Shown piece after piece: positions 913 through 45,154 of a stretch of 64,000 nt of DNA. A model generated the notes under the pieces. The model did no database searches and was not told the origin of the DNA. It saw nothing but the letters and a program-made list of their open reading frames with translations. The DNA comes from Azolla caroliniana (Eukaryota > Plantae > Polypodiophyta). The position numbers and the translations under genes are program-made. The stretch is from NCBI GenBank assembly GCA_043228905.1, contig JBHGNT010000020.1:1860001-1924000 (forward strand). Direction: 5' to 3'. How positions within the stretch are numbered: position 1 is the first letter of the stretch; each line of letters opens with the position of its first letter.

Positions 913-3900
913 TTGCAAGAATGCCAGATTATGTTGCCACTAGGAAGACTCCTACAACTCGTGCCAAGATTCACGGAAGGACTGAAGACGGCCATGACGG
1001 CAGGAGAACCATCACCGACACCGATACTCTTCTCGAATCCAGAGGAGGGACCAACGGTGGTGGACACCAGCAGTCCGGTAATCACTTCCATTGTAAAAGG
1101 GAAAGAACTCCCCAACACAGTTATAGACGGAGGCTTTGGGGTGAATGTAATAAGCCTCCGGACGTGTGATGCCCTAGAAATCCACGAGTGGGAGCCGTGT
1201 CCGTTCTAGTTGCAGATGGCCGATACAAGCTCAGTGCGGCCGACAGGATTAATACGGAAATTAGAAGTCACCGTCGGCGGTCATACATTTCACATCTCGG
1301 CCGTAGTGCTACAATTACAGGCACAAGGCGCATACCCGCTATTGCTGGGGCGGCCATGGTTGAAAACGGCACATATCAAACAGAATTGGAGGAAAAATAT
1401 AATTACCTTCCGGTGAGGAAAAGCCAAGGTACGGGTACCAACACAGCCAAGGACGAGCACTGGCAAGGAATGTACACCGTTGTATGCGGAATGCGTCAAC
1501 ATGCTAGAAGGGTTAGCTGACGAAGAAGAAGCTCAGTACCTGCAGGAAAACCCGAAGATCATACCCCTCTTCGAAATTGACATTGCCGAACTAGTAGCAC
1601 CATACTTACCGCAACCGGAAGAGGCTGAAGCAGAACCAGATAAAGACGCAATCCGGGAGTTACGGCAAGCGCAGGAAGCGTTGGAACGGGAAATGGCCGT
1701 TTCACAGTGCGTAAAAGCGTCGCAACTGGAAGAGGTGAACCAAGGGACCACGGACGAAGCAAAACCTGTGCACATCGCCAAGGAGATGAAGTCCGAAGAC
1801 AAAACGGTGATGATCACACTTCTCACAGAATTTCGCGATGTGTTCGCCTGGTCATACGAAGACATGCGAGGACTCGACCCTCAGTTATACCAGCATCAGG
1901 TTCACTTGAGCAAGGACGCAAAACCAGTGGCACAAAAAAGGTACCGAATGAATCCCAATTATGCCGCCAAAGTCAAGGAGGAAATCGACAAACTGCTAAG
2001 AGTTGGCTTTATCCGTCCGGTAAAGAAAGCGACATGGCTGAGCCCGATCATAGTCGTACCGAAGAAGAACGGAAAAATTCGAGTTTGTGTGGACTACCGG
2101 AAACTCAATGCGGCTACGGTAACGGATGCGTTTCCACTTCCGTTCACAGATGGAGTGTTGGATGTCGTCGCCGGCCATGAGGTCTATAGCTTCCTAGACG
2201 GATTCAGCGGGTATAATCAAATCCGGATGCACCCCGATGACCAAGAGAAAACGGCTTTCGTCACCGAATGGGGGGTGTTTGTGGCCGTGGTGATGATGTT
2301 TGGACTCAAAATGGCATCGGCAACATTTCAACGAATCATCATGGAAATCTTTGGTGAATATATTCCGGCTTTTATGCAGGTTTTCCTTGACGATTTCGCC
2401 GTCTATAGCCGGGAGGAGGACCATTTTCAGCACCTTCGCCTTTGTCTTGAAAAGTGTAGAGCGTACCGGCTAAGCTTGAATCCGGCAAAGTGTGTATTTG
2501 GCGTATCCAGTGGAACTCTATTAGGACATATTGTGAGCCAGGAAGGTATTGCAGTTGACCCGGACAAAGTGAAAGCCATATTAGAAGCACCGGCGCCGGC
2601 AACGGCAAAGGCATTAAGCCGGTTCTTAGGCCAGATCCGATGGCACAACCGGATGCTCTGATACTTGGCCGACCTGGCTACACCGTTGAATGCCGCCGTA
2701 CATCGGACACCATTCTAGTGGACCAACACCGAGGATAGGGCGTATAGGGCCCTCAAGGTACTATTGTCGCAGGCACCAGTAGTGCAACCTCCGGATTGGA
2801 GTAAAGAATTTCACGTGTTCGTGGACGCCTCCGACATCGCAATCGGAAGCGTACTTATGAAGCTTACGGAGCCAAAATGGTACCGGCCAGTGTACTATGC
2901 CAGCCGAAAGCTATCCCAAGCAGAACGAAACTACTCTACCACGGAACGGGAAGCTCTAGGGATGATCTACAGTGTGACAAAGTTTCGGCATTATTTATTG
3001 GGAAGGAAGTTTTCCTTCCATGTAGATCATTCGACACTCCTTTACCTGGTGTCCAAAGCGTCACTCACCGACAAATTGGCCCGATGGACCTTACTGTTAC
3101 AGGAGTTCGAGTTTGAAATATTCCACTGACCCGGTATACAGCATGCCGTGGCGGATTACTTAAGCCTATTAGAGTCCGGAGAGACGGGTGACGGAGTAGC
3201 GGATGAGTTTCCGGATGCGGAGCTGTTTCGAGTCACTACGGAGACGGAAGCAGATGAGATGGTGGCACAGGAAGACAAATGGCTCACAAATATGCACCAG
3301 TTTCTGAGCACAGGACTGCCTCCGGAAGAGATGAACCGGGACGAACGGAAATGCCTGGCGGTGCAAAGCCGACATTTCTGCTTACTGCAAGACACACTGT
3401 ACCACAAGGGCGCAGATGGCATATGGAGACGGGCGGTGCGCAACAATGAAAAGGAACTGATACTGAGGGAAACCCACTGCAGAGTTGCCGGAGGTCACTA
3501 TGCCGGAGATGCGATGGCCAGGAAAATATGGCAAAGTGGCCTATGGTGGCCAACGACATTAAGAGATGTTGTACGGTACGCAAAAGAATGTGACCTATGC
3601 CAGCGAATGGGCCAGCCAACGGAGCAGGCTCGTATGCCACACTAGCCGGTACTACCACTCGAGCCATTCCAGAAGTGGGGGCTGGACTTTGTGGGACCGT
3701 TCAAGCCACCGGCAATGAGAATGGGTAATCGATACGTCATCGTCGTGACGGATTACTGCACGAAATGGGTGGAGGCCAAAGCATTAAGGGACAACACCGC
3801 GGCGTCAACGGCAAAGTTTCTATATGAGTACATCTGGTGCCATTACGGATGCCCAATTGAATTAATAAGCGACCAAGGGGGGGCACTTTCTCGGCCAAGT

Positions 3901-4669
3901 AGTGGAAAGCCTGACGACATTCTATGCCGTTGTCCACAAACGGAGCACACCTTACTATCCACAGGCGAACGGTTTAGCGGAATCAATGAATAAGACGCTC
4001 CAGAATATCCTCCGGAAGATCGTCAACGAAAACCGAACGGATTGGGACATAAAGCTACATAGCTCGCTTTGGGCATACCGGACGACATACAAAACGAGCA
4101 TCCGAACAACACCGTTCTGGTTAGCGTTCGGACTAGAGGCGGTAATGCCGGTGGAATTCCAAGTACCCAGCTTACGGATCCAGCTACGGGAACGGCTGAA
4201 CGAGAAGGAGTCAGAGGCAATACGGTTGACATCGCTGTGTGAACTCGAGGAACAACGACTGGCCAGCATCCTGCACTTAGAATTGGAGCAACGGCGACGG
4301 AAAGCATTTGTCGACTGGCACAGGAAAGGAAACGAAAAAATGTTCGCAATCGGCAAACCGGTGTTAGTATTTCAGACCCGGATGGGCAAGATGCCGGGTA
4401 AACTATGGTTTAGATGGACCAGACCGTATTGGCTAACACGGGAGTATAATGGGTCCTACTAGTTAGGGACACTGGCCGGCGAAGTGCTAGGCAAATGGGT
4501 CAACGGATTCCGATTGAAGCCATATACAGGACCGATGCCTAAGAACCCATTTGAGCAAAGGACCGACACCAGTGAGGGAAACGACAACCACCAAGACGGC
4601 AGAGACGGCGAGCCGGTAACTGGGGAAAGTGAGGCCGGTAAGGGTCCGAGAGGACCAACGGACAAGTAA
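913..4669 (+). pseudogene. pol: pol of A1: protease, RT, RNase H, integrase (several stops, frameshift near 3885)
   Basis: PR VIDGGFGVNVI and LLLGRPWL; RT 1480-2661; RH FHVFVDASDIAIG and YSTTEREAL; INT HHCC (HC..GGHY...CDLCQ), SDQG, YYPQANGLAE; GPY-like WTRPY...VNGFRLKPY. Confidence 0.93.
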
Positions 4670-4851
4670 CGTCACACTAAATTAAATTATTAAAAATAAA
4701 ATAAAATAAAATAGAAAAGAAAAGAAAAGAAAAGAAAAAAAACAATCATGCAAAAGCGAGGAATGAATGGATGAAAGAGCGAGGAGCGAAAAGGTACGTA
4801 GTGGGCATTTAAAGCGCCACCACAGGACATAATGCTATTTTAGTACACGAC

Positions 4852-7746
4852 ATGCACACACTCGAAAAAGGCGCCAGAATGCACAGACAAAAACCACTGC
4901 GCGTAGAGACCCTTTACTTTCGCGAACCCAGGAGCACAGAAGCACCAAGACGCTGCAAGATCATCAGACGAGAACCTGCGCACAGAGAACCCCCGCCTTC
5001 TGAACTCTCTCTCTCTCAACCTCACTCTCATCACCATCCAACCTCGCCACCGCAATCTGACCTCGACACAGAAATGGACCCGCAAACGCTATCGGAAGCC
5101 GCCAAGACATGGCTAAAGCAACATGGGCTCGAGGGCTTCTTGATGATGATGGAAGTACCGCCACACAAAGAAGCCGACAAAGTGATAAAAGAAATCGACA
5201 CAGAGGTCATAACGGCAGAGGCGATTCGAGCGTTAACAGGCCTTCCGGAGGGAGGCATACTCACGATCGACAATCCAACCCCGGAGCAACTCATTAGGTA
5301 TTTTGGTGAGTACTCTCTAGCCAGCAAGGGCTACCGGACACAGGGCGGCGGAGATATGTTGTTCCGCGAGATTGCTCGTGTGCTCCACGAATACGGCCAC
5401 GTGTACCCTAGACCCCCTGTCATGCCACAGAACCGGGCAGGGATGATCATCGCCACCTATGAAGGGGTCAAGGTGGATTGGCCGGTATTGATCGCAGACG
5501 GGTTGTGTGTGGCGATCAAGATCGTCAGAGGCAAAGACGGCAAAGAAGGCCGAGACGGACGGAGGATATGGCACGCCGTAACGCAGTGGCTCACCTTGCT
5601 TGTGCCACCCGTCCAGTCCGTCCTGCCCAAGAAGCGAGGAAGAGTGGCGGACGACACCCCAAAGACGGCTTCCAAACGACAACAGTTGTTGGCCTCTAAG
5701 GCCAGTAAGGGAAAGGCGGCGGATGCAGAACATGCGGCAGCCGAAAGCGCCCAACAGAGGCGCAGGAGGAACCACCGGCACGGCCCGTAAAGGTTACACT
5801 CCGCGGACCGGTGAATAGAGAAGCGGACCCCTTGGCGGCAAAACTCAATGCCGGGACTCAGGAAGAGGAAATAGAGTAGGAACCTACGGAGCACCTCCAG
5901 CGACGGTCGTCGGCAAGGACCGTTGAGGCAGTCGGGAAATGTTCGGACCCTCAGACGGAGGGAACACCGACTCCCCATACTAAGACTCCAACGCCAAGGA
6001 AGGAATCAGAACCGGAATCAGAAGCCCCGGCACCACCGGCAACACCAGCAAGTCCCATCCCACTAGAGCCGGAAAGGTCAATGCAACCTCCCTCGGCCAG
6101 CCAAGAAGAAGCACAAGGGGAACCAGGACAACAGGGTGGTCCACGGGCATAAACGGAACTGCAACTCGCCGCAACCAGGCGGGACCACCCCTCTACAAGT
6201 GAGCCCATCTGTCAAACCTCCGTGCAAGCACAACAAGGCACCGGTAGCCTGTGGCTCTGGTGGATAGGCGAACATATAGCCGGAGCAGTGGGGTATATTG
6301 AGGCGGAAGAAAGAGCGCAAAGCGAACGGTTGCTTGTCACAACCGAACAACTAGAGACGGCCCAGTCCAGAATCCGATGCCTTGAAAAAGACTTGGATCA
6401 GGTCACGACAGAGATGGCCAAAATGGCCTTAACGGCAACACAGATCCAATCACTGGTGACTCCGGTAAGTGTATAGAATAAAGAAACGGATCGACCTGTA
6501 CATACCAATAAGACCCCGGCAACGGAAACCGTTCCGACGAGAGATGCGGCGCAAGCCCAGGAGCTTGCGGAATTGAGAGATGAACTTGCCGCACAAGAAG
6601 CGCTAAGGAGCCGTGAACGAGAATTGAAGATAGCGGCCGAAGCCGAATTAAAGAAGACTGCTGAGAACCTCCGTCGGGCAGAGGAGAGCCTCCGGAAAGG
6701 CCATCAAGCGTACGACCGGCTAAAGGAGGAGAAAGACAAAGTGCTGCAGGAAAAGGACAAGCTACGGAAAACGGCGGAAACAGAGATTGAACGGCTAAAG
6801 GAAGAGCTCCGCCAGCAGAAGGACCGCGAGGACCGGGCCCGTCGACAGATCAATGCACGACTCAAGCAAAAGACAGATGATTTTGAGCACCTGCACCGGG
6901 ACTACAAACGGCTAGAAACGGAGCATAAGGAATGGATGGCCGAGCTCCAGCAGGAAGTTGATCGGGCCGCGATGGCGATCGCCGACGAACGTGCGGAAAA
7001 TACAAGACACTTGGACGAGGCGGAGAAGGTCCGGATGGAGCTCCAGAGGCAGCAACAGGAAGAAAAAGAGAGAGCGTCAACAATATTGCAGAAATTACAA
7101 AGTACATATCAAAGGCAATTGACGCATTACAAGGCGCAGGCGGAAGACAATGTCAAAATCATCAAGCAACTGAAGGAGGAACGGCAAGCGGTGGAAACCA
7201 AATCACAATTGGGAACGAGCCGGATTCAGTCCATCCTCAGGGCATGGCTGAATCAGACAAAACACTTGATTGATGAAAGCTCCGTAAAATGGTGGACAAA
7301 GTGGGCACAAAACGCGACGGAACTCCAGTTGCTACGGGTAGATGTGGCAAACCGGCGGAAGGAAGGAGATGATTGTTATACGTTGACTTCCGAGGACTTC
7401 ACCGCCATACGGGACGAGCTGGCCGACGACTTCCAAGTCCTGGCGGATGAACAGCTGGCGTAGGTCAGGCAACTCGTAGCTCAGCTAGACGATGATAGGC
7501 TGGACGCTCAAATCCAGTTTGAAAGCTACGAGCGGTCCCGGGTTTGGGAAGAAAAAGCACGGGAAGCGGCAACGGTTAACCTTAGTGATGAGGAACCGTC
7601 GCCGGCTGAGGGCCAGCCCGGAACCAGTCAACCGGAGACCACTACGACGCAGGGAGCAACAATGGAGACGCCGGTGTTAGAGCAACAAACGGAGGAGCAT
7701 CCGCAACAGCCATCAACGGACCCGTCGCAGCAGACATCAACAGAGC

Positions 7747-7781
<35 letters not shown>

Positions 7782-7847
7782 CCAATTCCAGATGAACCAT
7801 TGGAGACTCTCGAACAAAGCATTCTGGATATTTTGGACGAAGAATAG
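4852..7847 (+). pseudogene. extra ORF downstream of pol in A1 (globular N-terminus, Pro/Glu linker, long coiled coil, poly-Q tail), interrupted
   Basis: ORF pieces 4852-5790, 6222-6476, 6573-7463 and 7662-7847 are collinear and homologous with the A2 pieces (WLKQHGLEGFL / WSNQHGLGGFL; WWTKWAQNA / WWSKWAKQA). Confidence 0.8.
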
Positions 7848-7857
7848 CAAGGGTCGG

Positions 7858-7899
7858 TTGTGGATTCGACATACAAGGTACTTTCCCACGGGCGTGCCA
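7858..7899 (-). other. inverted PBS / tRNA-Arg 3'-end copy in place of the PPT (A1)
   Basis: TTGTGGATTCGAC-13nt-TCCCACGGGCGTGCCA ends 2 nt before the LTR TG; minus strand reads TGGCACGCCCGTGGGA. Confidence 0.75.
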
Positions 7900-7901
7900 T
7901 G

Positions 7902-8336
7902 TGTTACCGGCCGGCAAAGGAGTCCAAAGTGGGAAACGAAGGGTTATTTAAGTAGTAGGAATGTGGTTGTAATTAAGCTATGAGTGTGGACGGACGAACT
8001 GGAATCGGTATGCCGTTCCGGATCTGGACTGATCCCGAACAGGTGCGGATGGCACCGTTTTGTAATACAGACCGGAAACCTATTTAAAGGCCCGGATACA
8101 ATGTAATCAATAGCGGTTAATTAATAAAAGCCTAGCGTTGTTATCTCTCTGTGTTAATTGCCGTTCTGTCTTAATTGTTATATCTTACGCGTGTGATTAT
8201 GAAAGACGATCATGCTAAGTAACTTAATTAAGTCGGATTAAGCTTTGAGTCTAATCCGGTTGCCGTAACACCCTTTGGTGAAGTGTCTTCCGTAGACACC
8301 CTGTGTTAGGCCATTGTCCGGCCCTAAGAGTTAACA
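7902..8336 (+). repeat. 3' LTR of A1
   Basis: TGTTA...TAACA termini, TATA-like TATTTAAA, homologous along its length to the A2 LTR. Confidence 0.85.
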
Positions 8337-9156
8337 TGTGCCAAAGTGATCACACTCTAACTAGAGATATATGTAGATGTTAGGTGAGAAAACCATAGTG
8401 CTTCCTTCATTCTACTATCATTATTATCGTGCACTCGTAGAGTCTCAAACTCCTATTCACGTCATCATCTCTAGGTATGTGACACTTAGCATATGTCTTC
8501 CTCTGAATTCAACTTTTATCTCCTAATCAAAGTCATATGTCATGGTGGGATTGAGCAAGATTGTTGTTCACCTGTTTGTTTGAAAAATGGGTGACAATGG
8601 TTGTCAAGTGTTACCCCGTACGAGATGTACGGAGAGTCAAGTGTGATGAGCGAGGGTCGAATGTTATCATAATGTTGTTGTGTATGTGTAGGGGGCATAA
8701 ATGTAATTGTGAGTCGATACGTATGTGAACACATGCACACGTGTGTGCATGTGGATGGATACGAGGAGGTATGAGTGAGTGTCCAGTATGAATGCTCTAG
8801 GGGGCTTACACCCCTTTGTATCTACCCCCTCTTGTACTATTTAACCCCTTATGGGGAATGAATGAAATATGAATGAACATTTCTCTCTATCTCTCTTTTC
8901 ATCTCTCTCTCTCTCTCTCTCTTGTCATCTCTCTTCCTATCTCTCTCCCTCAACGTTGAACCCCCTTGGGAGGGGGGTGGAGCCATTCTAGGCACCACCC
9001 CCCACCCCACAATGCTTCTCAACGATTCTCAACATCTTCATGCCAATCTCTCTTACCATCATACTCTCCATTATCTTCGCTATTACGCCATGTCTATCTT
9101 TGTCATTGATAATCATCATCGTCCTTAACCCTAACCCTAAAACGTACAACACCTTT

Positions 9157-9173
9157 TGGCGACCACAATGGGA
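9157..9173 (+). other. primer-binding site, tRNA-Arg (UCG-type)
   Basis: TGGCGACCACAATGGGA 5 nt after the 5' LTR; complementary to a recalled plant tRNA-Arg 3' end (...TCCCACTGTGGTCGCCA) with 1 mismatch. Confidence 0.75.
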
Positions 9174-11064
9174 TCCCCCTTTGGAGACGGAGTCGAAGAA
9201 TGATACGCGACAATGTGAGGCATAGTGATGATGATATGTAAGAGATGTCCGGATAATGATGGCGATATGCAGCAAAAGGCGGAAGAAATCAGAAATGGAA
9301 GATTGACAAGATTGACTGCTGCACAATTCTACAATGAATTAATCTCTATATGTGAATGTTTTGTGTGGTCTGTTTTTGCCCTAAATGTCCGAGAAATGTT
9401 GGCCAAGATGTACAAAAACAGTGTCAATGCATGAGAGGAAGTTGCAAAACAAGTTGCAAAACGATGGCGTAACATGAGTGTGTGAGAATGGAAATGACAA
9501 TGTGCAAATGTGCGGTTAGCAGCAACGTGCGCGTGTTCCAAGGAGACTGTGGAGGAAGACGCAATGTGTGGAGCGTGGGCCAGCAAGATGTGCGGGACCG
9601 GAATGGGACGTGTTCACAGTTTCCAGTTTCCAGAGAAGCAACGCGGAAAAAGTCGGAACCAGAACAAGAGTTGGTTGGCACCAAAGCGACCGGAGGGTCG
9701 GACAAGGTCAGGGAAGCAGACAGGCCGCCAGGATGACGGACGGTGTCAGACGACGACGAAACCGACAGAGATGGTGATGGAGTCCGCAACGGAGGCAGCC
9801 GGAGCAATCGAGAGCCGAGGAGCGGCCAAAGCGGCCGGAATAGCCGACCAGTGGCCGGAGTGGCCAGATCAACCCGATCGGACAAAGACAGCGCCAGCCA
9901 CCGAATGGAGCGGCGGTCGTATAGTGGTAGCGGCAGAGTGGCAGCCGCTGGATAGCGGCTGGATCGATTTCTGAAATGTGCAACGACACATAACGGTCAG
10001 AGTGGCCGAATGGTGCCAAACCGGAGGCGGCCGACACAGCCAACAAACAACGATGGCAATGGCCGGAGCGGCGACCAGACAAAGTCGGACAGTGGTCGGA
10101 GCGGCCAAAATGGCCAGAATGGCCGGGAGATAGCCAGACCAACCAGAATGGTAGAATAGCTGTCGAAGCGAGGTGATGGATGGACAACCAACGACCGAAA
10201 CGACGAGCCGGATAGCCAGAAAGACACGGCTGAACAGTGACAGAAATGAAGATAGAGACGACCGAATAACGTTGGCGCTGGACAATGGCCGCACAAAGAC
10301 GGATGACGCGACAGAGATGTGCAGCCAACTGAAACAAAGAAAACACAGAAAAGAATGAAGGAGAAGAAATCATGGAGCAGCACAAACAGAGAAGAAGAGA
10401 AAGAAAGATAGGAGAAATGGAAGGAGTCATGGAGAGATGGAGAAGCGAGCACGAGAGACAAAGAAAGAAGAAGAAAGGAGATGATATACAAGAAGATGAA
10501 GAAGAAGAAGTGGAAGAAGATGTAGCCATTGATGAACAGAGAAGGAAGAGAAAGAAGAATTCATGGAAGAAGAGAAAGGCATGGACAGACAGACAAGAGT
10601 GGGAGAGGCAAAAAAGTAAATAAAAAAAAAAGGAATGAAGAAAGAAAGAAAAGAGAGGGGAAAAAAGGAGATAGGGGTATCGAATATAATTATAAAAGCC
10701 TTGAGGGTACATAATTTTATAAAAACATAAGGGTACATATACAGTTTTCAAAACCTAAGGGCATTGTCATTCGTTTAGAAAATTTGAGGCTAAAAATACC
10801 TAAAAACTTATCCACCTAAAGAAATTGACGTGATCGACCACGACAACCCACACAAAAATTAAAGGAAGAACACACATACATACAACATATTTTTGATGAC
10901 CCGAATGATTTTACGAAGTTCGTAAGTCGACAGAACGAGAATGTTCGTGTCGCGGAAGATTTGCTGACCGACAAAGATGTTCGAGTCAAGCACTCCGATC
11001 GAGGGAGTCGATCAATGAAAGGACCGATGGAAGTTTCGGTCGAAGAAATATCATCATCAAGGCA

Positions 11065-11105
11065 TGTGGGATCGACGTGCAAGGCACTTTCCCACGGGCG
11101 TGCCA
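11065..11105 (-). other. inverted PBS / tRNA-Arg 3'-end copy in place of the PPT (B)
   Basis: TGTGGGATCGAC-GTGCAAGGCACTT-TCCCACGGGCGTGCCA, 5 nt before the 3' LTR TG. Confidence 0.75.
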
Positions 11106-12246
11106 TATTGTGTTACCCCGTACGAGATGTACAGAGAGTCAAGTGTGATGAGCGAGGGTCGAATGTTATCATAATGTTGTTGTGTATGTGTAGGGGGCAT
11201 AAATGTAATTGTGAGTCGATACGTATGTGAACACATGCACAGGTGTGTGCATGTGGATGGATACGAGGAGGTATGAGTGAGTGTCCAATATGAATGCTCT
11301 AGGGGGCTTACTTTGTATCTACCCCCTCTTGTACTATTTAACCCCTTATGGGGAATGAATGAAATATGAATGAACATTTCTCTCTATCTCTCTTTTCATC
11401 TCTCTCTCTCTCTCTCTCTCTTGTCATCTCTCTTCCTATCTCTCTCCCTCAACGTTGAACCCCCTTGGGAGGGGGGTGGAGCCATTCTAGGCACCACCCC
11501 CCACCCCACAATGCTTCTCAACGATTCTCAACATCTTCATGCCAATCTCTCTTACCATCATACTCTCCATTATCTTCGCTATTACGCCATGTCTATCTTT
11601 GTCATTGATAATCATCATCGTCCTTAACCCTAACCCTAAAACGTACAACATCACATAATCTAATACTCAACAAAAAGACAAAGCACATATACAAGGCGCA
11701 ACATATATCTCTAGTTAGAATTCGGTCCCTCCGGATGGGATCCAAATTGGACGAGCCGAAGGAAGGAACGGACCGGACAGATCCGGTGTGAACTAGATCT
11801 AGGGACATATCTGTAAACATGTTTCTAGTGTGACTGTCATGGCCACATCTGTAAATAGTCCTAAAGTCATATAAGTATAAATATGACTTAGGGCAATCAC
11901 TTATATGTGTGAATGTCATTATTGTTGTATAGAGAGAGACATAGTGAGAGCGGGAGAGAAACAGAAAGTATATTTTGTTGTAACCGCCGATTGGCAAAGT
12001 CATAGAGCTCGAGGTCATTGCCTCTAAGTCTCGCATTGTACCTTTCCTCTCATAGTGATAGTTGGAGTATGTGGGCTCTCGTGGTTTTTTCCCATTTAGG
12101 GTATTCCATGTTAACATCCGGTGTCCTCTCTGTTGTCTATGTAAGTGTATTAATCTCCATTTCTATTTTGATCTTCCATTGAGTGTCTAAGACTCGGTTG
12201 TGGCCGAGCACTATTCCTCACAAGCTGGTATCAGAGCAACCAATAA

Positions 12247-27151: not shown

Positions 27152-28635
27152 GTTTTGACATCTAGTTGAATCAACTCCAAGTTTTCGGCTGCCACTACGC
27201 CCAGCATGAAGTGAAGGGTGGTCATTTTCACCACTGGTGAAAACATTTCGTCGAAGTCAACGCCGTATTCCTGTCGAAAGCCCTTTGCTACTAATCTGGC
27301 CTTGAATTTCGGGGTGGCCGAACCAGACGTTGTCGCGTTGTTACGCGCATGCGTGGAGAAAGGCGGGACCACGGGGGTCTTGGACTAGGGGGTGACGGAG
27401 CGTAGGAAGTCGTACTTCACCGTTTCTGGGGCATCCCAGAAGGACACCGGAAGCAACCGAAGGGAGAGGGAGAAAGAGAGGGAGCGCGCGCTTGACACTG
27501 ACTCGCGCACACACACACACACACACACAAGCCGACCCGACTCACGCCCTTATGTACAGGAAACGCAGGAAAGGGGAAGCACCCGACACCAACAGAGACA
27601 CCAATATACACAGATAGACGCAAATGTATATATATAAAAGGAGGAATACATTCTCGACTTCGAGCCGGACCAAGGTAGGTTACAGTAGTCGTCGGCTACC
27701 AAGCCATAGGTCGGGAGCTCACGGGCTTGTCGTGCCGAGCGGGGACTTGCGCAGGAGACGAGCTGAAGCCAACCCTAAGCGAACACGAAGGGGAAGAAGA
27801 AGAAGAAGAAGAAGAAGAAACCCTAAATCTAGCGATATACACTCTAACGCAAAATGGGCAACCCCTTTCTCAAAGGGCGCTCCCTTCCTTTTATAGAACA
27901 AGGAGAGGGATGTGTTACAATGTGGGATAAATCCCGACTTACATGGGATCGTCTGTCCCGACTTGACTACTCTTCGGCGCCATAAAGGTGCCCTCGTTAT
28001 TCACACTAAATGTACAAGGGTGAACACACATGCCGCACCCCGCCGATGTAGCCAATGTTTCCCGGTTTCCGCCTCTGGTCGAAATTCTTCACGACATCCG
28101 CCCCCACCTAACCGCACGTCCACCGGTACGTGCCAAACCCGGTGAAGGGTGAGATATTTCGGCCGGTGAGAAACCGGTCTTCCGTAATCCGCACCCCGGC
28201 TCGCTGCCGGTTTGATCCGTCAGCTTTGGTTCTTCCTTCGCGCTTACCTCCCCGTAGGCTCGTTCGACCCGTCGATGGGTCCTCTGCCGTGATCTCCGTA
28301 GTACGCGTACTTCCGTTGGCCCTTGTTTGGCCGTATGAACGCCCCGCTCCCCGCCGTATGCCCGATGTCCTCCGTTGAGGAACGCCCGTAGTGGCCCGCC
28401 TGGCCTCCCGTTTTCGTGCTGCTGCAACAGGTCCTGAGTCCTCCACTTGCCATCGTCCCCTCGCCCCCACCAGCTTGTCACCCCGGGCTTGCCGTGTCAG
28501 TCTTCGCTACTTCGACGGAGCTACCGAGATCTACGAAGCGAGTGTGGAGGATCCTCCTCCGGCCTCTCTTGCCATCCCCTAACTCCGACCCTATGCAGTC
28601 CACTAGGCACTTGTCACCTCGTTCTCGGCACCTCC

Positions 28636-28721
28636 TGTTGGAGACAAGGTCGTCTATGCGGAAGATCAAGAAGCATTCGATTCTGTTCTGAGTACCTGCG
28701 TATGGCAGTTTCCAAGATCGT

Positions 28722-28762
<41 letters not shown>

Positions 28763-31700
28763 CACAAAAGACTTTCTATTCAATAGAAACAATAATACAA
28801 CCAACCTTACAAAAAGGTTACAAGGTCACTTTATATAGTGACAAACTTAGGGCAACTACCCTTTATGCTAATTACACAAATGGCCCAAACTTGAGCTATA
28901 CAAAAGGATAGTGTGAATACGTCCATTATACACTTGTATTCGACACTCCCCCGTAATGGGCGTATACATGGGTTGTCTAAGATTACAGGTATAAACCTAG
29001 GTTCTCGGACATATCAGTTTTGTTCGAGTCGGCAGTGTCCGAAGGCAGAAGACCGGACTGGTCGGGTCGGAAGAGTTGAAGCCGATCATTAAGGAACTGA
29101 TGTCGGTTGTCCGAAACCATCCTGCGCTGTGTCCGGCTCTAACCGGACTGGTTTGTCGTTACGCCCATCTGATGCCGAAGAGACCGAAAGCGGTCTGCCG
29201 AAAGACACTTGGTCATTCCATCTGCGACATTGTCGGTTGTGGATATTTTCTCTAGACCGATTTTCCCTGAAATGACGCAGTCCCGAACGAAGTGATATCG
29301 AACGTCGATATGTTTGGAGGCGTTGTGGTGAACCGGATTTCTCGACAAGGCAACAGCACCTTGACTGTCGCTATAGACAACTGGAGCCGAGTCATGGTCG
29401 ACTTGCCGAAACGTGTGCGCCAGCCGGCCGAGCCACAAAGCTTCTTTTGCAGCGTCGGACGCAGCTACATATTCTGCTTCGGTCGTTGAGGTCGCTGTGC
29501 ACTCCTGAAGTTTCGACTTCCACGAAATTGCTCCATTGCCGAATTTGAAGCAGTATCCAGTTGTTGATTTCCGACTGTCTATACAGCCGGCGAAGTCCGA
29601 GTCGGTGTAACCGACTACGCCTGAGATTGAGTTCGGACCGAAAAGAATGCCGTGGTCTTTTGTGCCAGCTAGATATTTGAACACATGCTTGACTGCGTTC
29701 CAATGCGATCGGCCAGGATTGTGCATAAATCTGCTGACGACTCCTACGGCATGAGAAATATCAGGCCGTATCGCGACCATCAGGTACATAAGGGAGCTGA
29801 CTGCCGGTGCATACGGTACCGACTTCATATCTTCCCCCTCCGGGCCGGATGTCGGGCAGTCTCGCTGAGAGAGCCGAAGATTCATGGGGAGCGGGGTTGA
29901 AGCAGATTTGGCTGATTGCATGTTGAAGCGTTCCAAGACACGTCCGATATAGTCGGTCTGAGACAAGAAAAGATGTCGTTTATCGCGATGCCGACTAATC
30001 TTCATGCCAAGTATGTGTCGTGCCGGACCGAGGTCCTTCATGGCAAACTTCAACCGCAGTTGCCGAATGAGATCGGCAAGTTCGCCCGCGTGGCGTCCAG
30101 AAATTAGCATGTCGTCCACGTAAATGATGAGGAAGATGGGTGAGCCATCTTGAGCTGTGTTGGTAAAAAGACAATGGTCCTCATCGCTTTTTGAGAAGCC
30201 GATCGATTGGATGAAGTCGTCGAACTTCTTGTACCATTGTCGCGGTGCCTGTTTGAGGCCGTATAGACTCTTCCTGAGTCGGCAGACTAGATGTTCTTGG
30301 CCAGTTGCCACGAAGCCTTTTGGCTGCTCCATATAAATTTCCTCTTCAAGATCACCATGGAGGAAGGCTGTTTTGACATCTAGCTGAATCAGCTCCAAGT
30401 TGTCGGCTGCCACTACGCCGAGTAGAAAACGAAGGGTTGTCATTTTCACCACTGGTGAAAAAATCTCGTCGAAGTCGACGCCATATTCTTGTCGGAAGCC
30501 CTTCGCAACTAATCTGGCCTTGTACTTTGGGGTGGTCGAATCAGACATCTCTTTTAGTCGATAAACCCACTTGCAAGGAAGAGCACGTCGGTTCCTAGGT
30601 AATTCGACCAGATCCCAAGTCTTGTTTGCCCGAATGGAGTGCATTTCCGACTCCATCGCCAGATGCCAGGTGGCTGAATCGACAGATGTCGATGCTTCTT
30701 CGTAAGACGTCGGTTCGCCGGCGTCGGTGAAGAAAATTCCAGGAGAATACCTCTCCGGAGGTTGCGACAGTCTCTCGGATCGTCGAGGTATGAGTGGACT
30801 GGTCGCATCGGGTATCGAGGTCGGATGGTCCGAAAGCGAATTATTCTGCTGTGCCGAGTCAGAGTTGTCCGAGTCGGTAGTGTAAGGTTCAGCTACCCGT
30901 GAAGCTGACCGTGTGTTAAGAGCGGGGCCTTCTTGAAGGGTCGGCACATCGGAAAATGTTACCCTTCGGACTTCGATCGGTTTTTCGACTGATGGATTCA
31001 TAGCCGACTCGTTGAACACAACGTCCGAACTTCGAACGATTTGTCTGCGTTCGGGGTCCCAGAGTTGGTATCCCATTTCGCCGTCTGATCCATATCCAAG
31101 GAAAATGCATTTCCTGGACCGAGGTGCAAGTTTTCGGCGATCATCTTTCGGAATAAGGGCGTATGCCTCGCATCCGAAGATCCTCAGCTTGTCATAATTC
31201 GGCTTACTGCCGATCCATAGTTCCTGAGGAATTTGAAGTCCTAGAGGTCTGCTTGGCGACATATTGATTATGTGTACTGCCGTGAGTAGAGCCTCTGCCC
31301 AGAAGCCATCCGACAGTCCGGAGTGTTGGAGCATGGAAACTATCCGTTCTTGGATTGTCCGATTCATGCGTTCGGCAATCCCGTTTTGCTCCGGACTGTG
31401 TGGTGCCGTAAATTCACGTCGGATGCCGCGTTGTCGGCAGAATTTGACGAATTCTTCTGATTTGAACTCTCCCCCATTGTCGGTCCGAAAGCATTTCAGT
31501 TTTCGGTCGGTTTGATTTTCTACCATAGCGAGCCAATCGGAGAAGATCGAGAAGACACGATCTTTGGTGCGAATTGGATAAGCCCACACCTTTCGAGTCG
31601 AATCGTCAATAAAACTGACGAAGTAAGAGGCACCGCCGAGAGACTGATGCGGCATTGGGCCACAGACGTCCGAGTGGACTAAATCGAGAGGTCTCGTTTC

Positions 31701-33626
31701 TCTTGGTGCTGATGTCGGGTGTGATGCGGCTGCTTGTTTGCCATACTGGCAATGCTCGCAGAATTGATGGTCGGAGAAGGAGAGTTTAGGGATGTATCCG
31801 GCTCTAGATAGATGCGTAATGCCGGCCTTGCTGAGGTGTCCTAATCTTCTGTGCCATAGTGATGACACAGGAATATCCACCAAAAACAGGTTACCCTCTC
31901 TGAGCGTAACATGTAACGGATACAGTGAGTGTATCTTGGGTCCTCTAGCAAGCAGGAGGTTCCCCCTGTGGAGTGTCCACCCTCCCGAAGAAAAACCGGC
32001 ACGAATGCCGTCTTCATCTAGTTGTCCGACTGAGATCAATGGCCTTGAGAGCTCGGGTACATGTCGGACATTGTGAAGTACAAGTGTAGAGCCACCTGCA
32101 AGGTTGAGCTCTACTGTGCCGATTCCAATGATGTCACAGTGTTGCGAGTTGCCGACTCGAACTGAGTCGGAGTGACGGATCGTATATTGCCGAAATTGGG
32201 ATCTATGAGGAGTCACGTGAAATGACACGCCCGAATCTAAGAGCCATGTGCTCGATTCTTCAGTCGTGAGCAGAACTTCTGATCCGACTGGATTTTCGAT
32301 TGACAGTATATTCGGGTCGTTTGGTAGCACATCAGCTGAGAAGCTGACGTAATTGATCTCCTCATGCCGGCCACTCTTCTTGTCTGATTTTTGAGACTTG
32401 TCGTTCTTGTTCTTGAGTGCGCGGCAGTCGGCTTTGATGTGTCCGGGTTTCTTGCAATAGTTGCAGATTCGATTATCCCGTGACTGGCTCCGTCTTCGCT
32501 GATTGTTCGGCTGCCATGAGGAATCTCTTCCTCGTATGTTCGATCGGTCTGTCGAACCTTGTACTACATAAGCGTCGTCTGTTGAGTCTTTGGCGAAAGA
32601 CTTTCTCCGAGCTGCTTCGGTCAGGATTGCGCTCGTGACTTCGGAGTATTTAACAGCTGTGGTTGACGCGTTGCACACGGTTGTGACGAAAGTTTCCCAT
32701 GATGAGGGAAGGCTACTCATGAGTATCATTGCTCTGAGTTCATCCTCGATTGCCGTCCCCTGAGATGAGATTTGGGAGCTTATGCTTTCGTACTCATTGA
32801 GATGTGCTTGAACCGAATCTGATTCTTTCATTCGCAAGTTGTAGAGGCGCCGAATCAGAAACATCTTCGTTGCAGCGACCTTCTTTTCGTAAGTGTCCGA
32901 CAGAGTTTTCCACAGTTCGAATGCTGTCGTACACGATTGCACCGTAAAGTATACCGATTCCGATAGGTGTATTGTTGAACTTGCTCGAATTGACTCGGGT
33001 AACTTGAGGGACAGAACCGACTGGTCTTCCCGAATGTTGCCGAGTCGGAGTGAGCCCGGTTCGCTTCCGAATATATATGCCAAATACCGATTATTGAAAC
33101 CGATTGTCTGGACCGATTCTGCTTCGGGTGACTGCAGCAACGAGAGAGACGGATCCAACTGATCCTCCCGAATGTCGATCAGCCGGATGAAGCACGAATT
33201 GGGGTTGTTGTCTTGAGAACGATCTGCACCGAGTGGTTACAATGAGCGGCGAGCAGCGTTTGATGACCTCTTCCGATGCCGTTTAACCGAGTGGAGCACG
33301 ATCGTGTCAATGTTGCACAAGGGGATTTCACCTCGAGCGGTTACGATCACAAGAAACAGAGTACAACCGGCTGGCTTACTCCAAGCGAAGATGATCTAAC
33401 GCGATGAGATGCAAGCCTCGTTTTTCTTCTTCTTCTCTCTTCTTCGAATGACGCAGGAAACCGAATGCTGTGCAGGCTGAGACGACGGCCGACAGCGGAT
33501 TGAAGGACCGAATACTGTGCAGGCTCTGATACCAAATGTTGGAGACAAGGTCGTCTATGCGGAAGATCAAGAAGCATTCGATTCTGTTCTGAGTACCTGC
33601 GTATGGTAGTTTCCAAGATCGTGCAC

Positions 33627-33669
<43 letters not shown>

Positions 33670-33852
33670 CACAAAAGACTTTCTATTCAATAGAAACAAT
33701 AATACAACCAACCTTACAAAAAGGTTACAAGGTCACTTTATATAGTGACAAACTTAGGGCAACTACCCTTTATGCTAATTACACAAATGGCCCAAACTTG
33801 AGCTATACAAAAGGATAGTGTGAATACGTCCATTATACACTTGTATTCGACA
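28636..33852 (-). mobile_element. young Ty1/copia element D nested in C1
   Basis: LTRs 28636-28945 and 33537-33852 (about 2 substitutions plus a GA-repeat length difference), TSD CCTCC, PBS-iMet 33523-33534, PPT at 28946. Confidence 0.96.
29139..33158 (-). CDS. Copia gag-PR-INT-RT-RH polyprotein, uninterrupted 1339-codon frame (true gag start appears deleted)
   Basis: CNYCKKPGHIKADC, LLDSGVS, WHRRLGH...CEHC, RTDNGGEF, YVDDML, KHIDVRYHFVRD. The predicted start is TTG, not ATG. Confidence 0.9.
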   Translation of the reverse strand: MDPSLSLLQSPEAESVQTIGFNNRYLAYIFGSEPGSLRLGNIREDQSVLSLKLPESIRASSTIHLSESVYFTVQSCTTAFELWKTLSDTYEKKVAATKMFLIRRLYNLRMKESDSVQAHLNEYESISSQISSQGTAIEDELRAMILMSSLPSSWETFVTTVCNASTTAVKYSEVTSAILTEAARRKSFAKDSTDDAYVVQGSTDRSNIRGRDSSWQPNNQRRRSQSRDNRICNYCKKPGHIKADCRALKNKNDKSQKSDKKSGRHEEINYVSFSADVLPNDPNILSIENPVGSEVLLTTEESSTWLLDSGVSFHVTPHRSQFRQYTIRHSDSVRVGNSQHCDIIGIGTVELNLAGGSTLVLHNVRHVPELSRPLISVGQLDEDGIRAGFSSGGWTLHRGNLLLARGPKIHSLYPLHVTLREGNLFLVDIPVSSLWHRRLGHLSKAGITHLSRAGYIPKLSFSDHQFCEHCQYGKQAAASHPTSAPRETRPLDLVHSDVCGPMPHQSLGGASYFVSFIDDSTRKVWAYPIRTKDRVFSIFSDWLAMVENQTDRKLKCFRTDNGGEFKSEEFVKFCRQRGIRREFTAPHSPEQNGIAERMNRTIQERIVSMLQHSGLSDGFWAEALLTAVHIINMSPSRPLGLQIPQELWIGSKPNYDKLRIFGCEAYALIPKDDRRKLAPRSRKCIFLGYGSDGEMGYQLWDPERRQIVRSSDVVFNESAMNPSVEKPIEVRRVTFSDVPTLQEGPALNTRSASRVAEPYTTDSDNSDSAQQNNSLSDHPTSIPDATSPLIPRRSERLSQPPERYSPGIFFTDAGEPTSYEEASTSVDSATWHLAMESEMHSIRANKTWDLVELPRNRRALPCKWVYRLKEMSDSTTPKYKARLVAKGFRQEYGVDFDEIFSPVVKMTTLRFLLGVVAADNLELIQLDVKTAFLHGDLEEEIYMEQPKGFVATGQEHLVCRLRKSLYGLKQAPRQWYKKFDDFIQSIGFSKSDEDHCLFTNTAQDGSPIFLIIYVDDMLISGRHAGELADLIRQLRLKFAMKDLGPARHILGMKISRHRDKRHLFLSQTDYIGRVLERFNMQSAKSASTPLPMNLRLSQRDCPTSGPEGEDMKSVPYAPAVSSLMYLMVAIRPDISHAVGVVSRFMHNPGRSHWNAVKHVFKYLAGTKDHGILFGPNSISGVVGYTDSDFAGCIDSRKSTTGYCFKFGNGAISWKSKLQECTATSTTEAEYVAASDAAKEALWLGRLAHTFRQVDHDSAPVVYSDSQGAVALSRNPVHHNASKHIDVRYHFVRDCVISGKIGLEKISTTDNVADGMTKCLSADRFRSLRHQMGVTTNQSG

Positions 33853-34706
33853 CCTCCCTTGTGCCGTCTTCTGCTTCCTTCGTTCGGCACCACCCGTGCC
33901 GAACACTGTCCCGTAGTCACGCTTCGATCCGACCCGCGATGGCCACTGGCAAGACTCTTGTTCCGCCCAAGGTGTGCCTTTCCGGCCCGACATACCTCCT
34001 TGTGTTTGCCCCTACCGGCTCCTTCCGAAACCGTAACCGGCCGGTGAGGGTTTCGCACTTCGTCCGCCCCGTCTTACCGGCTCCCGAACCGATATCTCGT
34101 GTCACCGGGTCCCGTTCCCTGCCGCCATCGTCCTTCTCCCTAGGTCTCACTCTGCCACGTTGGCCGAGCTGCCGAGGTCTCCAGATCGGTGTGAGGGTCC
34201 CATAGGACTGGTCTTCGTTTCGTCGGTTGTCGAGATCTGGGTGTCTTCTGCGTAGTCGGGTCCCGTTTCCCACCGCCACCATCCTTCTCTCTCGGTCTCA
34301 TGTTGCCACGTTGGCCGAACTGCCGAAGTCTCTGGTTCGGTGTGGGGATCCCGTAGGACCGGACTTCCTTACGCCCACTGACCTTACTGGAAGGCTCTGA
34401 TGCCGATCTTGCCAGACTCGTTCCAAACCTTTGATCACCTTCCTTTCCAATTCCCGACCTTCGCCTGGTCGGTCTTTCTCCCCATGTAAAAGAGGGCGGC
34501 TCGTCCCGCACCCTCTTTCGTATCGGCACTTTCATGCCGAATCCGGCCCCGATCGAACAATCCACGACTGGATTCTGCTCCATCCGCATCGGAATGCCGA
34601 TCTCCTCGTGCCGCGTCCGTCCTCAGCCTCCTCACAGGCCGTTTCCCATCCATCTTCGTTGGCATCATGCCAGGACTCCTCGGTACCGCCATCCATCTCC
34701 TCGGTC

Positions 34707-35954
34707 TTACATGGGCATACGGGCCCGAATCGGGTCCGAGGGCTTTCGTCCGTTCCTTCCCCGTATCGTCTCGCCGGTGATTCTTGGTCTTTCGCAACCG
34801 CCTTCCTCCGCTTGGGACTCACGTGGGCACTCGGGCCCGACTGCCTTCATCTCGGGAGCAAGTGTGGGAAGACACAAAGAATCGCCCGTCCGTTTTACGC
34901 CCTTGTCCGTAGCCACCGACTCTTCGTGGTCAGCGGTCGTCTTCTTACCGATCGCGCAAGCCCCACCTGGGCTTGCTTCTCCGATTTCCGGGGTTTTGGG
35001 CTGACACGCCCGAAACCGCTGGTCCCAACTATCCGGTTCCGCGATCTGTATCTCGGCCTCGTCCTTGGCCGTTCTATCTCCGCAAGTCGAGAGGGCGTTT
35101 TGTTCCGCACCCTCTCCTGTGGTACCGTTGTACCAATCTTCCGCCGTCACGTGGGGCAAGTCCGTCTCTTCAGTCTCGGCTTGCGGCCTTGGTCTTTCCT
35201 CTTCCTCGAGCATCACCTCAAGAGTTGCGTACGCCTCCGCAATCCTGGCCCCAACGCCGACCCTTGCCGACTCTCTTTGCCGTTCGGCCTCTTCCCGCTA
35301 TGATGGCACGCCGTCGCGTACCTTCCTCTTAGCCTTCTCGGCTCGCTCGTTGTCTAGCCGTTGGAACACCCTTCCGACCTTCGACCAGGCCTCCGTAAGC
35401 CCATTCGCTCCATCATCGTCTTCGAGCTCAATCCCGATGTCCTCCCGTTCCGCTCGGTCGATCGACCTGACGAACAATAGGACCTTGTCCGCCCCCACCA
35501 AACCTTGTTCCCGCTCCGGGAGCCGAGCAAGCCGTCGCTCAAACTCTCGGAACGCCTTGGTCGCGTCCCGGTGGGTCTTTGCCGATGCTACCCACTGGTC
35601 AAAGTTGTGTCGTCCCCGTCTCTTCCGCCGTCCTCCGTATGCCTTCAGGAGCGCCTCTTCGAAGGCCTCCCACGAACTATGAGCCTCACAAAGCTCCTTT
35701 ACTTCCGCACGCATCCGGACAGCTACGACCCAACAGAAGAACTCCAGCCTCAACGACTCGTCTACGCCACGCTCCTCCATTTCCGCATTGTAGGCTTCCA
35801 AGTAAGATGGGACTTTGTCCCCGTTGAAACGGCCGACTCTTTCGACCACTCGCTCCACCGCTTGTTGCGCTGCTTCTCGCCTCATCACCACTCGTGCCGA
35901 CTCCAACACCACTTCGGCCACCATCACCGCGAGGTCATCGTCTTCCGACTCCAT
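34707..35954 (-). pseudogene. gag-like ORF of C1 (internal stop at 35298)
   Basis: Starts just after the PBS; RFNGDKVPSYLEAY...SWEAFEEALLKAY resembles a retrotransposon gag capsid region; homologous ORF in C2. Confidence 0.6.
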
Positions 35955-35970
35955 CCTCCCTTGCCGCCTT

Positions 35971-35987
35971 TCACGTCGGGTTCACCA
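35971..35987 (-). other. primer-binding site, tRNA-Trp
   Basis: Minus strand TGGTGAACCCGACGTGA, complementary to the recalled plant tRNA-Trp 3' end TCACGTCGGGTTCACCA; near copy at 44397-44413. Confidence 0.8.
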
Positions 35988-37864
35988 AATATGTCGCGTT
36001 GTTACGCGCGTGCATGGAGAAAGGCGGGACCACGGGGGTCTTGGACTAGGGGGTGACGAAGCGTAGGAAGTCGTACTTCACCGTTTCCGAGGCATCCCAG
36101 AAGGACACCGGAAGCAACCGAAGGGAGAGGGAGAAAGAGAGGGAGTGCGCGCTTGACACCGACTCGCACACACACACACACAGGCCGACCCGACTCACGC
36201 CCTTATGTACTGGAAACGCAGGAAAGGGGAAGCACCCGACACCAACAGAGACACCAATATACACAGACAGACGCAAATGTATATATATAAAAGGAGGAAT
36301 ACATTCCCGGCTTCGAGCCGGACCAAGGTAGGTTACAGTAGTCGTCGGCTGCCAAGCCGTAGGTCGGGAGCTCACGGGCTTGTCGCGTCGAGCGGGGTCT
36401 TGCGCAGGAGACGAGCTGAAGCCAACCCTAAGCGAACACGAAGGGGAAGAAGAAGAAGAAACCCTAAATCTAGCGGTATACCCTCTAACGCAAAATGGGC
36501 AACCCCTTTCTCAAAGGGCGCTCCCTTCCTTTTATAGAACAAGGAGAGGGATGTGTTACAATGTGGGATAAATCCCGACTTACATGGGATCATCTGTCCC
36601 GACTTGACTACTCTTCGGCGCCATAAAGGCGCCCTCGTTATTCACACTAAATGTACAAGGGTGAACACACATGCCACACCCCGTCGATGTAGCCAATGTT
36701 TCCCGGTTTCCGCCTCTGGCCGAAATTCTTCACGACAACGTCTCCTTAACTCGATAGACCCACTTACACAGAAGAGCACGTCGATTCTTCGGTATTTCGA
36801 CCAAGCCTCAAGTGTTGTTTGCACGAATGGAGTTCATTTCGGATTCCATTGCCAAATGCCAGGTGGCCGAGTCGGCTGATGCCGATGCGTCTTCGTATGA
36901 CGTTGGTTCTCCGGTGTCCGTAAAGAAGATATAGGAGAGTATCTCTCTGGGGGTTGTGACAATCTCTCAATCATCGAGGTATGACTTCGCTTGGCTTTTG
37001 GACAGATTGATGCATGGTCGATTCATTGAACACGACATCCGAACTTCGGACGATTTGTCTGTGTTCGGGGTCCCAGAGTCGGTATCCCATTTCGCCATAT
37101 GGTCCAAAACCGAGGAAAATACATTTCTTGGACGTTGGTGCAAGTTTGCGGCGATCATCTTTCGGGATGAGGGTGTACGCCTCGCTTCCAAAAATCCTCA
37201 ACTTGTCGTAATTCGGCTTACTGCCGGTCCATAATTTCTAAGGGATCCGAAGTCCTAGAGGCCTACTCGGCGACATCTTGATTATGTGTACTACCATAAG
37301 TAGGGTCTCTGCCCATAAGCCATTCGACAATCTGAAGTGTTGGAGCATGGAAACTATCCTTTCTTGAATTGTTCGATTCATTTGCTCGACAATTCCATTT
37401 GTTATCCTTTAGGCTAAACAAGCCCTAACACACGGTGTCCCTATGGAACACTTCACCAAAGGGTGGTACGGTGAGATTTGGATGGACCGTGGTGTCGAAT
37501 GGGTCTTAACCGGTTACTAACCGGCACTGTTAATGATCGTAACACACGCGTAAGATTAATTATATTAAGCACAGGACGATAACCAAATAGACACTAGACA
37601 ATATGTAAAACAACAACGCTTCTATTAATTATCCGTCCCTGATTACATTCTTGTTGGGTCCTTTTATAGGTCTCTAACTGAGTTACAAATCGGTGCCAAC
37701 CGGCAACGATCCGGTCTGGATCCGAATCAGCATACTGATTCTGGTCCGTCCGCCCGCTTCTCAAAATAACATAATATTTATTAATTACAACTCCCTATCC
37801 CTAATTAAATACCCCTTTCGCATTCTGGACTCTAATTGGCCCTTTGGCCTTGCCGGCCAACACA

Positions 37865-37906
37865 TAGCAGGCCCGTGGGACAATACATTGTACGTCGAAC
37901 CCACGA
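37865..37906 (+). other. inverted PBS / tRNA-Arg 3'-end copy in place of the PPT (A2, degenerate)
   Basis: Element strand TCGTGGGTTCGAC-GTACAATGTATTG-TCCCACGGGCCTGCTA, 2 nt before the LTR TG. Confidence 0.7.
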
Positions 37907-37916
37907 TTAGCCCTTT

Positions 37917-40112: not shown

Positions 40113-40116
40113 GCGT

Positions 40117-40243
40117 TGTCACGTTGTTACGCGCGTGCGTGGAGAAAGGCGGGACCACGGGGGTCTTGGACTAGGGAGTGATGGAGCGTAGGACGTCGCG
40201 CTTCACTTCTAGGGCATCCCAGAAACACGCCGGAAGCAACCGA

Positions 40244-40294
<51 letters not shown>

Positions 40295-45150: not shown

Positions 45151-45154
45151 GCGT

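Follow-up and report, generated by a model that had tools for sequence, protein, structure and literature searches.

Plus-strand DNA synthesis from a polypurine tract (PPT) is treated as general for retroviruses, for retrotransposons with long terminal repeats (LTRs) and for pararetroviruses. How, then, does an element begin its second strand when a piece of tRNA stands where the tract belongs? The question is raised by a 64,000-nt stretch of the Azolla caroliniana genome (contig JBHGNT010000020.1, positions 1,860,001 to 1,924,000; hereafter, the window), in which three retrotransposons, A1, B and A2, each carry a 40-nt split copy of tRNA-Arg(UCU) beside the 3′ LTR (Table 1). An earlier note on this DNA had described the copies as a bipartite mimic of the tRNA T-arm interrupted by a small hairpin. 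That description omits the main point, which is that the motif replaces the PPT, with a normal 5′ primer-binding site (PBS) at the other end of the element. Judging from position, conservation and modelled pairing, we consider it probable that a tRNA primes the plus strand in some form. The narrower proposal, that a second host tRNA primes plus-strand DNA through a split, inverted tRNA-Arg(UCU) site replacing the PPT, has in our estimate an even chance of being right.

A split tRNA copy in the place of the polypurine tract

Each motif copy reproduces positions 49–76 of tRNA-Arg(UCU) without base 66 and with an insert, 13 nt long in all three window copies, between positions 58 and 59. The three bipartite copies are as the earlier note described them: the 3′ half has three matches in the window against 0.05 expected from shuffles, and no more than 3 of 127,980 window positions carry the T-arm 10-mer of the upstream half when up to one mismatch is allowed. 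Removing the insert does restore a T-arm and acceptor end, CCA included, as had been claimed, save that base 66 is missing. The insert had been placed in a slightly different register; we favor the one that parts tRNA 58 from 59, since about 85% of the read depth at position 7883 shows G, matching G59 of the tRNA. ARAGORN found no tRNA gene or complete cloverleaf in the window (0 genes), and the Rfam tRNA family had no match in 7700–11300 at E ≤ 10.

Metagenome contigs were scanned with a pattern that allowed 0–29 inserted bases and left base 66 optional, which returned at least 122 loci (cited here by L numbers). Among the 127 matches listed, 84 have no insert; most of these are tRNA genes, and for many the identity tRNA-Arg(TCT) was confirmed. 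Another 41 are element copies, and two GC-rich chance matches were dropped. Base 66 is absent from 41/41 of the element copies listed, though the pattern permitted it, and CCA comes next in 41/41, which the pattern did not demand. Forty of these inserts measure 13 nt and one 14 nt; with four copies found via the 3′ half alone and the three from the window, 47 of 48 copies have a 13-nt insert. The 41 copies likely represent one host group, because their 13 source assemblies have neighboring numbers. By similarity, the LTR starts of the 32 copies of testable length form seven groups, and the neighboring open reading frame (ORF) shares 26–49% identity with that of A1 in 16 copies. Moreover, public runs filed under four organism labels contain contigs of other families that converge at 7860/11066 and diverge after 11105, the boundaries of tRNA positions 49 and 76. 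No indel is listed inside the motif in those runs, and one X19 contig joins across the motif 3′ half.

Viral contigs gave 18 chance matches to the 3′ half, none of them with the upstream half, and no relative of P0003; a looser pattern returned 120 stretches there, which were treated as noise. Runs of motif, LTR and PBS within metagenome contigs were not accepted as tandem arrays and may be collapsed-repeat joins. Base 66 is polymorphic in the tRNA itself among the 68 plant-type tRNA-Arg(UCU) matches fetched (T in 36, C in 32).

The motif of A1 lies after pol and an extra ORF and 2 nt before the 3′ LTR, which is the place of a PPT. Contigs L034 and L054 hold integrase, extra ORF and motif in the same order, and pol runs in the motif's sense in all three pol-linked copies (A1, L034, L054). 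No PPT adjoins the 3′ LTR in any of the 43 copies with enough flank; 12-mers with at least 11 purines are present in 10 of the 43, at 51–87 nt from the LTR. Read directly from the sequence, the longest purine run beside the LTR is 3 nt in elements with the motif, compared with 5–7 nt in the copia and Phygy-like elements of the window. The number of purines in the last 15 nt (8–9 with the motif, 9 in one copia) separates the two poorly, whereas run length does so. Between CCA and the LTR lie 2 nt in 35 of the 43 copies, 5 nt in seven and 8 nt in one, a spacer similar to the gap of 2–6 nt between LTR and 5′ PBS.

The 3′ motif keeps its Arg(UCU) type where the 5′ PBS changes type (B, L048, L078). 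Since the motif does not follow these changes, pairing with the element's own 5′ PBS was rejected as its main role. A minus-strand element using the motif as an ordinary PBS was rejected in view of the sense of pol (3/3) and of the PBS of element B at the other end.

Two other elements of the window, at 27331–36737 and 40117–45150 (minus strand), each have a purine tract of the usual kind, and their target duplications are 4 bp long (ACGT and GCGT). The duplications match the Phygy definition (NCGN), and both elements make a useful internal control and hint at a host outside the seed plants; their PBS is one that we take to be tRNA-Trp-like.

Covariation and folding of the insert

Covariation was assessed on 25 distinct 40-mers, the copy with the 14-nt insert being excluded. 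The inner stem of the insert is 96% paired, and two of its four pairs show double changes, with nine double-changed rows each: pair 13–21 is U-A in 16 rows and G-C in nine, and pair 14–20 is G-C in 15, A-U in nine and broken in one. None of 500 shuffles reaches the covariation score, and slid controls score much lower; measures that count pairs or pair types are not above shuffles with these 25 rows. Because related rows inflate cell counts, events weigh more. All four combinations of the two pairs are present, so that at least three double changes are needed, and parsimony on the extra-ORF tree (17 rows) gives four. RNAalifold independently predicts the inner stem together with an outer one, whose five tRNA-matching pairs have no double change. 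Read-depth letter tables were excluded from the set; they do not report both sides of the stem, probably through clipping.

The covariation of the inner stem is real, and the motif is a real, conserved, structured element. The earlier note had staked selection for structure on covariation and a constant insert length, and both are borne out, by the two covarying pairs and the 47 of 48 inserts of 13 nt. Within the window, its compensatory stem change stands for one pair only (G-C in B, A-T in A1 and A2). At 7871 the letter of A1, an A, is in the minority, G accounting for 93% of the depth; this A and the terminal T of the A2 stem likely arose by decay after insertion.

Folded alone as RNA, the motif does not exceed shuffles in stability (z −0.06 to −1.4, six copies), and its fold register shifts between families; these results weaken the tRNA-like minihelix that had been offered as one of two explanations. 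Nor is it unusually stable alone as minus-strand DNA, for which one of six copies has z −2.1.

Predicted pairing with the tRNA and candidate routes to plus-strand priming

For cofolding we took the tRNA from L019, a sequence backed by a separate gene in L114. The minus strand is predicted to pair with tRNA 49–76 over about 27 bp in most families, with base 66 bulged and the hairpin extruded at a three-way junction; the inner hairpin is the sole element common to the families' cofolds. The upstream half adds 4–7 kcal/mol in three of four families, a gain that 0, 2 and 14 shuffles out of 200 attain. An extended pairing with the hairpin looped out, the other explanation in the earlier note, is thus the best fit in the cofolds, with the exception of family B.

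We propose that the lineage dropped its PPT and that host tRNAs prime both DNA strands, the second being loaded on single-stranded DNA via a 27-bp split site that unwinds the T-arm, a model that we regard as evenly poised between right and wrong. Minus-strand DNA would be made and the RNA cleared by RNase H, after which tRNA 59–76 would pair with the minus DNA, base 66 being bulged. The T-arm would then open and 49–57 would pair with the upstream half, for a total of about 27 bp, while the 13-nt insert would project from a three-way junction in the form of a 4-bp arm. Extension from tRNA A76 by reverse transcriptase (RT) would set the left LTR end at a distance of 2–8 nt, as a mirror image of the right end. 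With the primer removed afterwards, the site would escape re-copying from tRNA in each cycle, which would account for the fixation of the missing base 66 and of the insert. An external tRNA partner also predicts both an outer sequence tied to the tRNA and an inner stem free to covary.

Several observations weigh against this model. Family B (T54A) gains nothing from the upstream half (−16.3 vs −17.4 kcal/mol), and 169 of 200 shuffles are as good. The energies are RNA parameters applied to an RNA:DNA hybrid and ignore modifications, and 1-methyladenosine at position 58 (m1A58) is unable to pair, according to the accessible sections of PMC13191261. The invariance of the outer stem is partly forced, the search pattern having fixed most outer letters, and G49T is present in two copies found without the pattern constraint. 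On the plus strand, several changes that affect one side only are still compatible with a G-U pair, as would be expected of an RNA fold; methylation decay can give the same pattern. Lastly, an uninterrupted tRNA joined to the U3 end is seen in no copy. The uninterrupted copies with a readable junction (L067 and L119) join the U5 end, and L019 is apparently of the same kind.

Some of these points favor an explanation without a tRNA, which we judge unlikely, in which the motif in the element's own RNA would fold like a T-arm, survive RNase H, be cut after CCA, much as RT severs a tRNA primer from DNA, and prime the plus strand as a structured PPT substitute. It would have the same 2-nt geometry and would draw on an RNA that can form outer and inner stems together; T54A in family B lengthens the RNA stem, not the tRNA duplex, and the one-sided G-U-type changes sit on the plus strand. 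Such a self-primer, however, would have no need to keep 27 nt of host tRNA sequence across families with 26–49% ORF identity, its stability does not surpass that of shuffles, its register varies by family, and its outer stem shows no compensation. The T-loop letters bear on another alternative, less probable again, in which a tRNA would pair with only the 10–17 nt of the downstream half, and the upstream half and insert would form a single cis hairpin whose role would be to release the tail from the RNA template or to place RT. These letters would be unpaired in the cis hairpin and yet remain tRNA-like; columns 11/24, where changes (C-G vs A-U) preserve a longer cis hairpin, are paired in only 20 of 25 rows and in part reflect a register shift. 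Priming from the half-site would nevertheless agree with the lack of any gain for family B and with the ordinary 5′ PBSs of these families, which match the tRNA over only 10–13 nt (L034, L045, L056, L065, L089).

We give little credence to a motif that is no primer site at all, but the remnant of an inverted LTR-PBS junction, retained because it serves packaging or circularization with the 5′ PBS; hairpin template-switch repair would then have fixed the stem changes. The motif is complementary to Arg(UCU)-type 5′ PBSs, RT copies long tRNA stretches into the PBS (L019, L067, L119), which offers a possible origin, and quasi-palindrome repair can generate paired changes. A relic would leave unexplained why the motif does not track the PBS when the latter changes type, why the spacer to the LTR is tightly fixed and why there is no alternative PPT near the LTR, the purine-rich 12-mers being few and distant.

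The split site of the tRNA-primed model, which we prefer, could have originated by one template switch that put a tRNA copy before U3, since the U5-side junction and the U3-side junction of family B have several bases in common. Three contigs have a 5′ PBS that runs far into the tRNA, over the full 76 nt at L019:1190–1265, 35 nt at L067:200–235 and at least 48 nt at L119:1–48; in L019 and L067 the extra ORF's tail comes after the long tRNA copy. The usual stop for RT copying of a primer tRNA is m1A58 (PMC13191261, accessible sections), and because these contigs hold 35–76 nt of tRNA at the 5′ PBS, RT appears able to copy past it. This suggests that read-through past m1A58 followed by a jump produced short non-autonomous elements.

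Elements carrying the motif

The order of RT, RNase H and integrase, the direct LTRs and the TG...CA ends are those of Ty3/gypsy elements (Metaviridae). The acidic motifs of RNase H are recognizable in the A1 translation. An archaeal-type RNase H (aRH) is absent from A1 and from P0001–P0003, P0006 and P0008, and the closest intact relatives lack PF13456. The 5′ end of A1 lies outside the window, and the evidence for a 5′ PBS comes from element B and relatives. The only homologues of the extra ORF are unnamed ENA proteins of 531–1135 aa, and its C-terminal half is coiled-coil-like; compared with the Atlas, every match was below 0.8, with a weak lead to Transposase_28 (0.76).

Table 1. Coordinates of the motif and of the elements that carry it, in window positions.
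Feature	Position	Strand	Evidence
A1 pol: RT, RNase H, integrase; stops and frameshifts	1417..4462	+	Pfam RVT_1, Integrase_H2C2, rve_3
A1 extra 3′ ORF, sense, broken, lineage-restricted	4813..7463	+	11 ENA homologues, no Pfam match
A1 motif copy	7860..7899	+	
Upstream half, tRNA-Arg(UCU) 49–58 (T-stem 5′ strand and T-loop)	7860..7869	+	1 mismatch in A1; tRNA genes in L019/L114
13-nt insert: 4-bp stem (7871–7874 with 7878–7881), 3-nt loop, 1 flanking base each side	7870..7882	+	Covariation
Downstream half, tRNA 59–65 and 67–76 including CCA, base 66 absent; putative inverted PBS on minus strand	7883..7899	+	
2-nt spacer, CCA to LTR	7900..7901	+	
A1 3′ LTR, TGTT...AACA	7902..8336	+	Homology with A2 LTR to its end
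Element B 5′ LTR	8609..9151	+	535/538 aligned bases identical to 3′ LTR
Element B normal 5′ PBS, 5 nt inside LTR; tRNA type differs from 3′ motif	9157..9173	+	
Element B motif copy, T54A variant, 5 nt before 3′ LTR	11066..11105	+	
Element B 3′ LTR	11111..11650	+	
A2 3′ LTR	37400..37862	-	5-bp target duplication 37395–37399 / 46299–46303 closes composite insertion
A2 motif copy	37865..37904	-	

Element B (8609–11650) is non-autonomous. Its 5′ PBS is presumably of the tRNA-Arg(UCG) type, and no tRNA gene matching it was present in the fetched loci. Target duplication is not clear for this element (8604–8608, 11651–11655) despite LTRs with three mismatches. Its LTRs contain a strong G/C-rich hairpin (8966–9010 and 11465–11510), with miRNA-family matches that are weak and at chance level; a similar hairpin directly precedes the PBS in L045, L056 and L065. 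The A2 composite, 37400–46298 (minus strand), has an LTR of the B family at its start and one of the A family at its end. Because its 5-bp target duplication is intact, the A and B families appear to have recombined before A2 inserted. Additionally, an uninterrupted copia polyprotein ORF of 1365 aa (29139–33236, minus strand) is nested in a Phygy-like element, and the region from 11.8 to 50.6 kb holds many further nested pieces of copia.

Implications

If correct, tRNA priming of the plus strand would be a new way to start plus-strand synthesis in Ortervirales. A successful high-copy lineage without a PPT would show that RT can use a tRNA as its starting point on DNA, or else a folded mimic of a tRNA, and that both LTR ends are definable symmetrically. 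Annotation software built to expect a PPT would overlook these elements or assign them the wrong orientation, and markers of the inter-PBS (iPBS) type would read from both ends. The 40-nt site is small enough for an oligonucleotide test, and the covarying hairpin provides built-in structural controls.

Comparison with known elements

Within the open literature, a coverage that takes in neither most subscription papers nor bioRxiv supplements, we found no published description of a tRNA site replacing the PPT. The Tas element of Ascaris reportedly has an unusual second-strand primer site. Belpaoviridae, the family of Tas, have an ordinary PPT according to their ICTV profile (PMC8742986) and differ from the motif elements in both family and host.

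The motif elements are non-chromovirus Ty3/gypsy elements. The nearest relatives of their RT are unnamed ENA proteins at 88–67% identity; named proteins, from Riccia and Adiantum, are more distant. A quick RT tree, which used 12 of 46 aRH-labelled rows and contained no named references, Athila included, places them in a supported clade outside the aRH-bearing and the angiosperm non-aRH (Athila-like) clades. With no aRH, an Arg-type PBS and a 5-bp target-site duplication (TSD) known from a single composite insertion (A2), they fully fit no lineage definition in the accessible sections of Neumann 2019 (PMC6317226), which name the PPT as a general feature only and not as a classifier. They lack a chromodomain, as do Athila, Tat, Phygy and Selgy. 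Tat elements (TatI–III, Ogre, Retand) have an extra aRH domain that the motif elements lack; Ogre and TatIII share with them the use of tRNA-Arg (PMC6317226). Phygy and Selgy have a 4-bp TSD, a PBS for tRNA-Trp or tRNA-Ala and no extra ORF, and the motif elements match none of these (PMC6317226). With Athila they share the lack of an aRH, a 5-bp TSD, an extra 3′ ORF and an AT-rich spacer of 5–6 nt before the PBS (PMC6317226; 10.64898/2026.03.20.713144, accessible sections). Athila differs, however, in a PBS for tRNA-Asp/Asn and a conserved PPT, where the motif elements have an Arg-type PBS and no PPT (10.64898/2026.03.20.713144).

Canonical LTR priming, as the accessible sections of PMC5371799 and PMC13191261 describe it for Ty3 and HIV-1, has much in common with these elements: the layout LTR-PBS-gag/pol-LTR, the order of RT, RNase H and integrase, a tRNA-primed minus strand and TG...CA ends. 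The plus strand, however, starts there at a PPT that resists RNase H, and here a tRNA-sense copy ending in CCA takes that place. The closest precedent for a split site is the bipartite PBS of Ty1 and Ty3, in which the primer's acceptor stem and its T-arm each find a partner in one of two distinct segments, divided in Ty1 by a small loop (PMC5371799, PMC7969010, accessible sections). That site lies on RNA, serves minus-strand priming and coexists with a retained PPT, whereas in the motif elements minus-strand DNA holds the complement, next to the 3′ LTR, and a covarying hairpin forms the spacer. Set beside these systems, a tRNA site in the place of the PPT would be a new variant of LTR retrotransposon priming.
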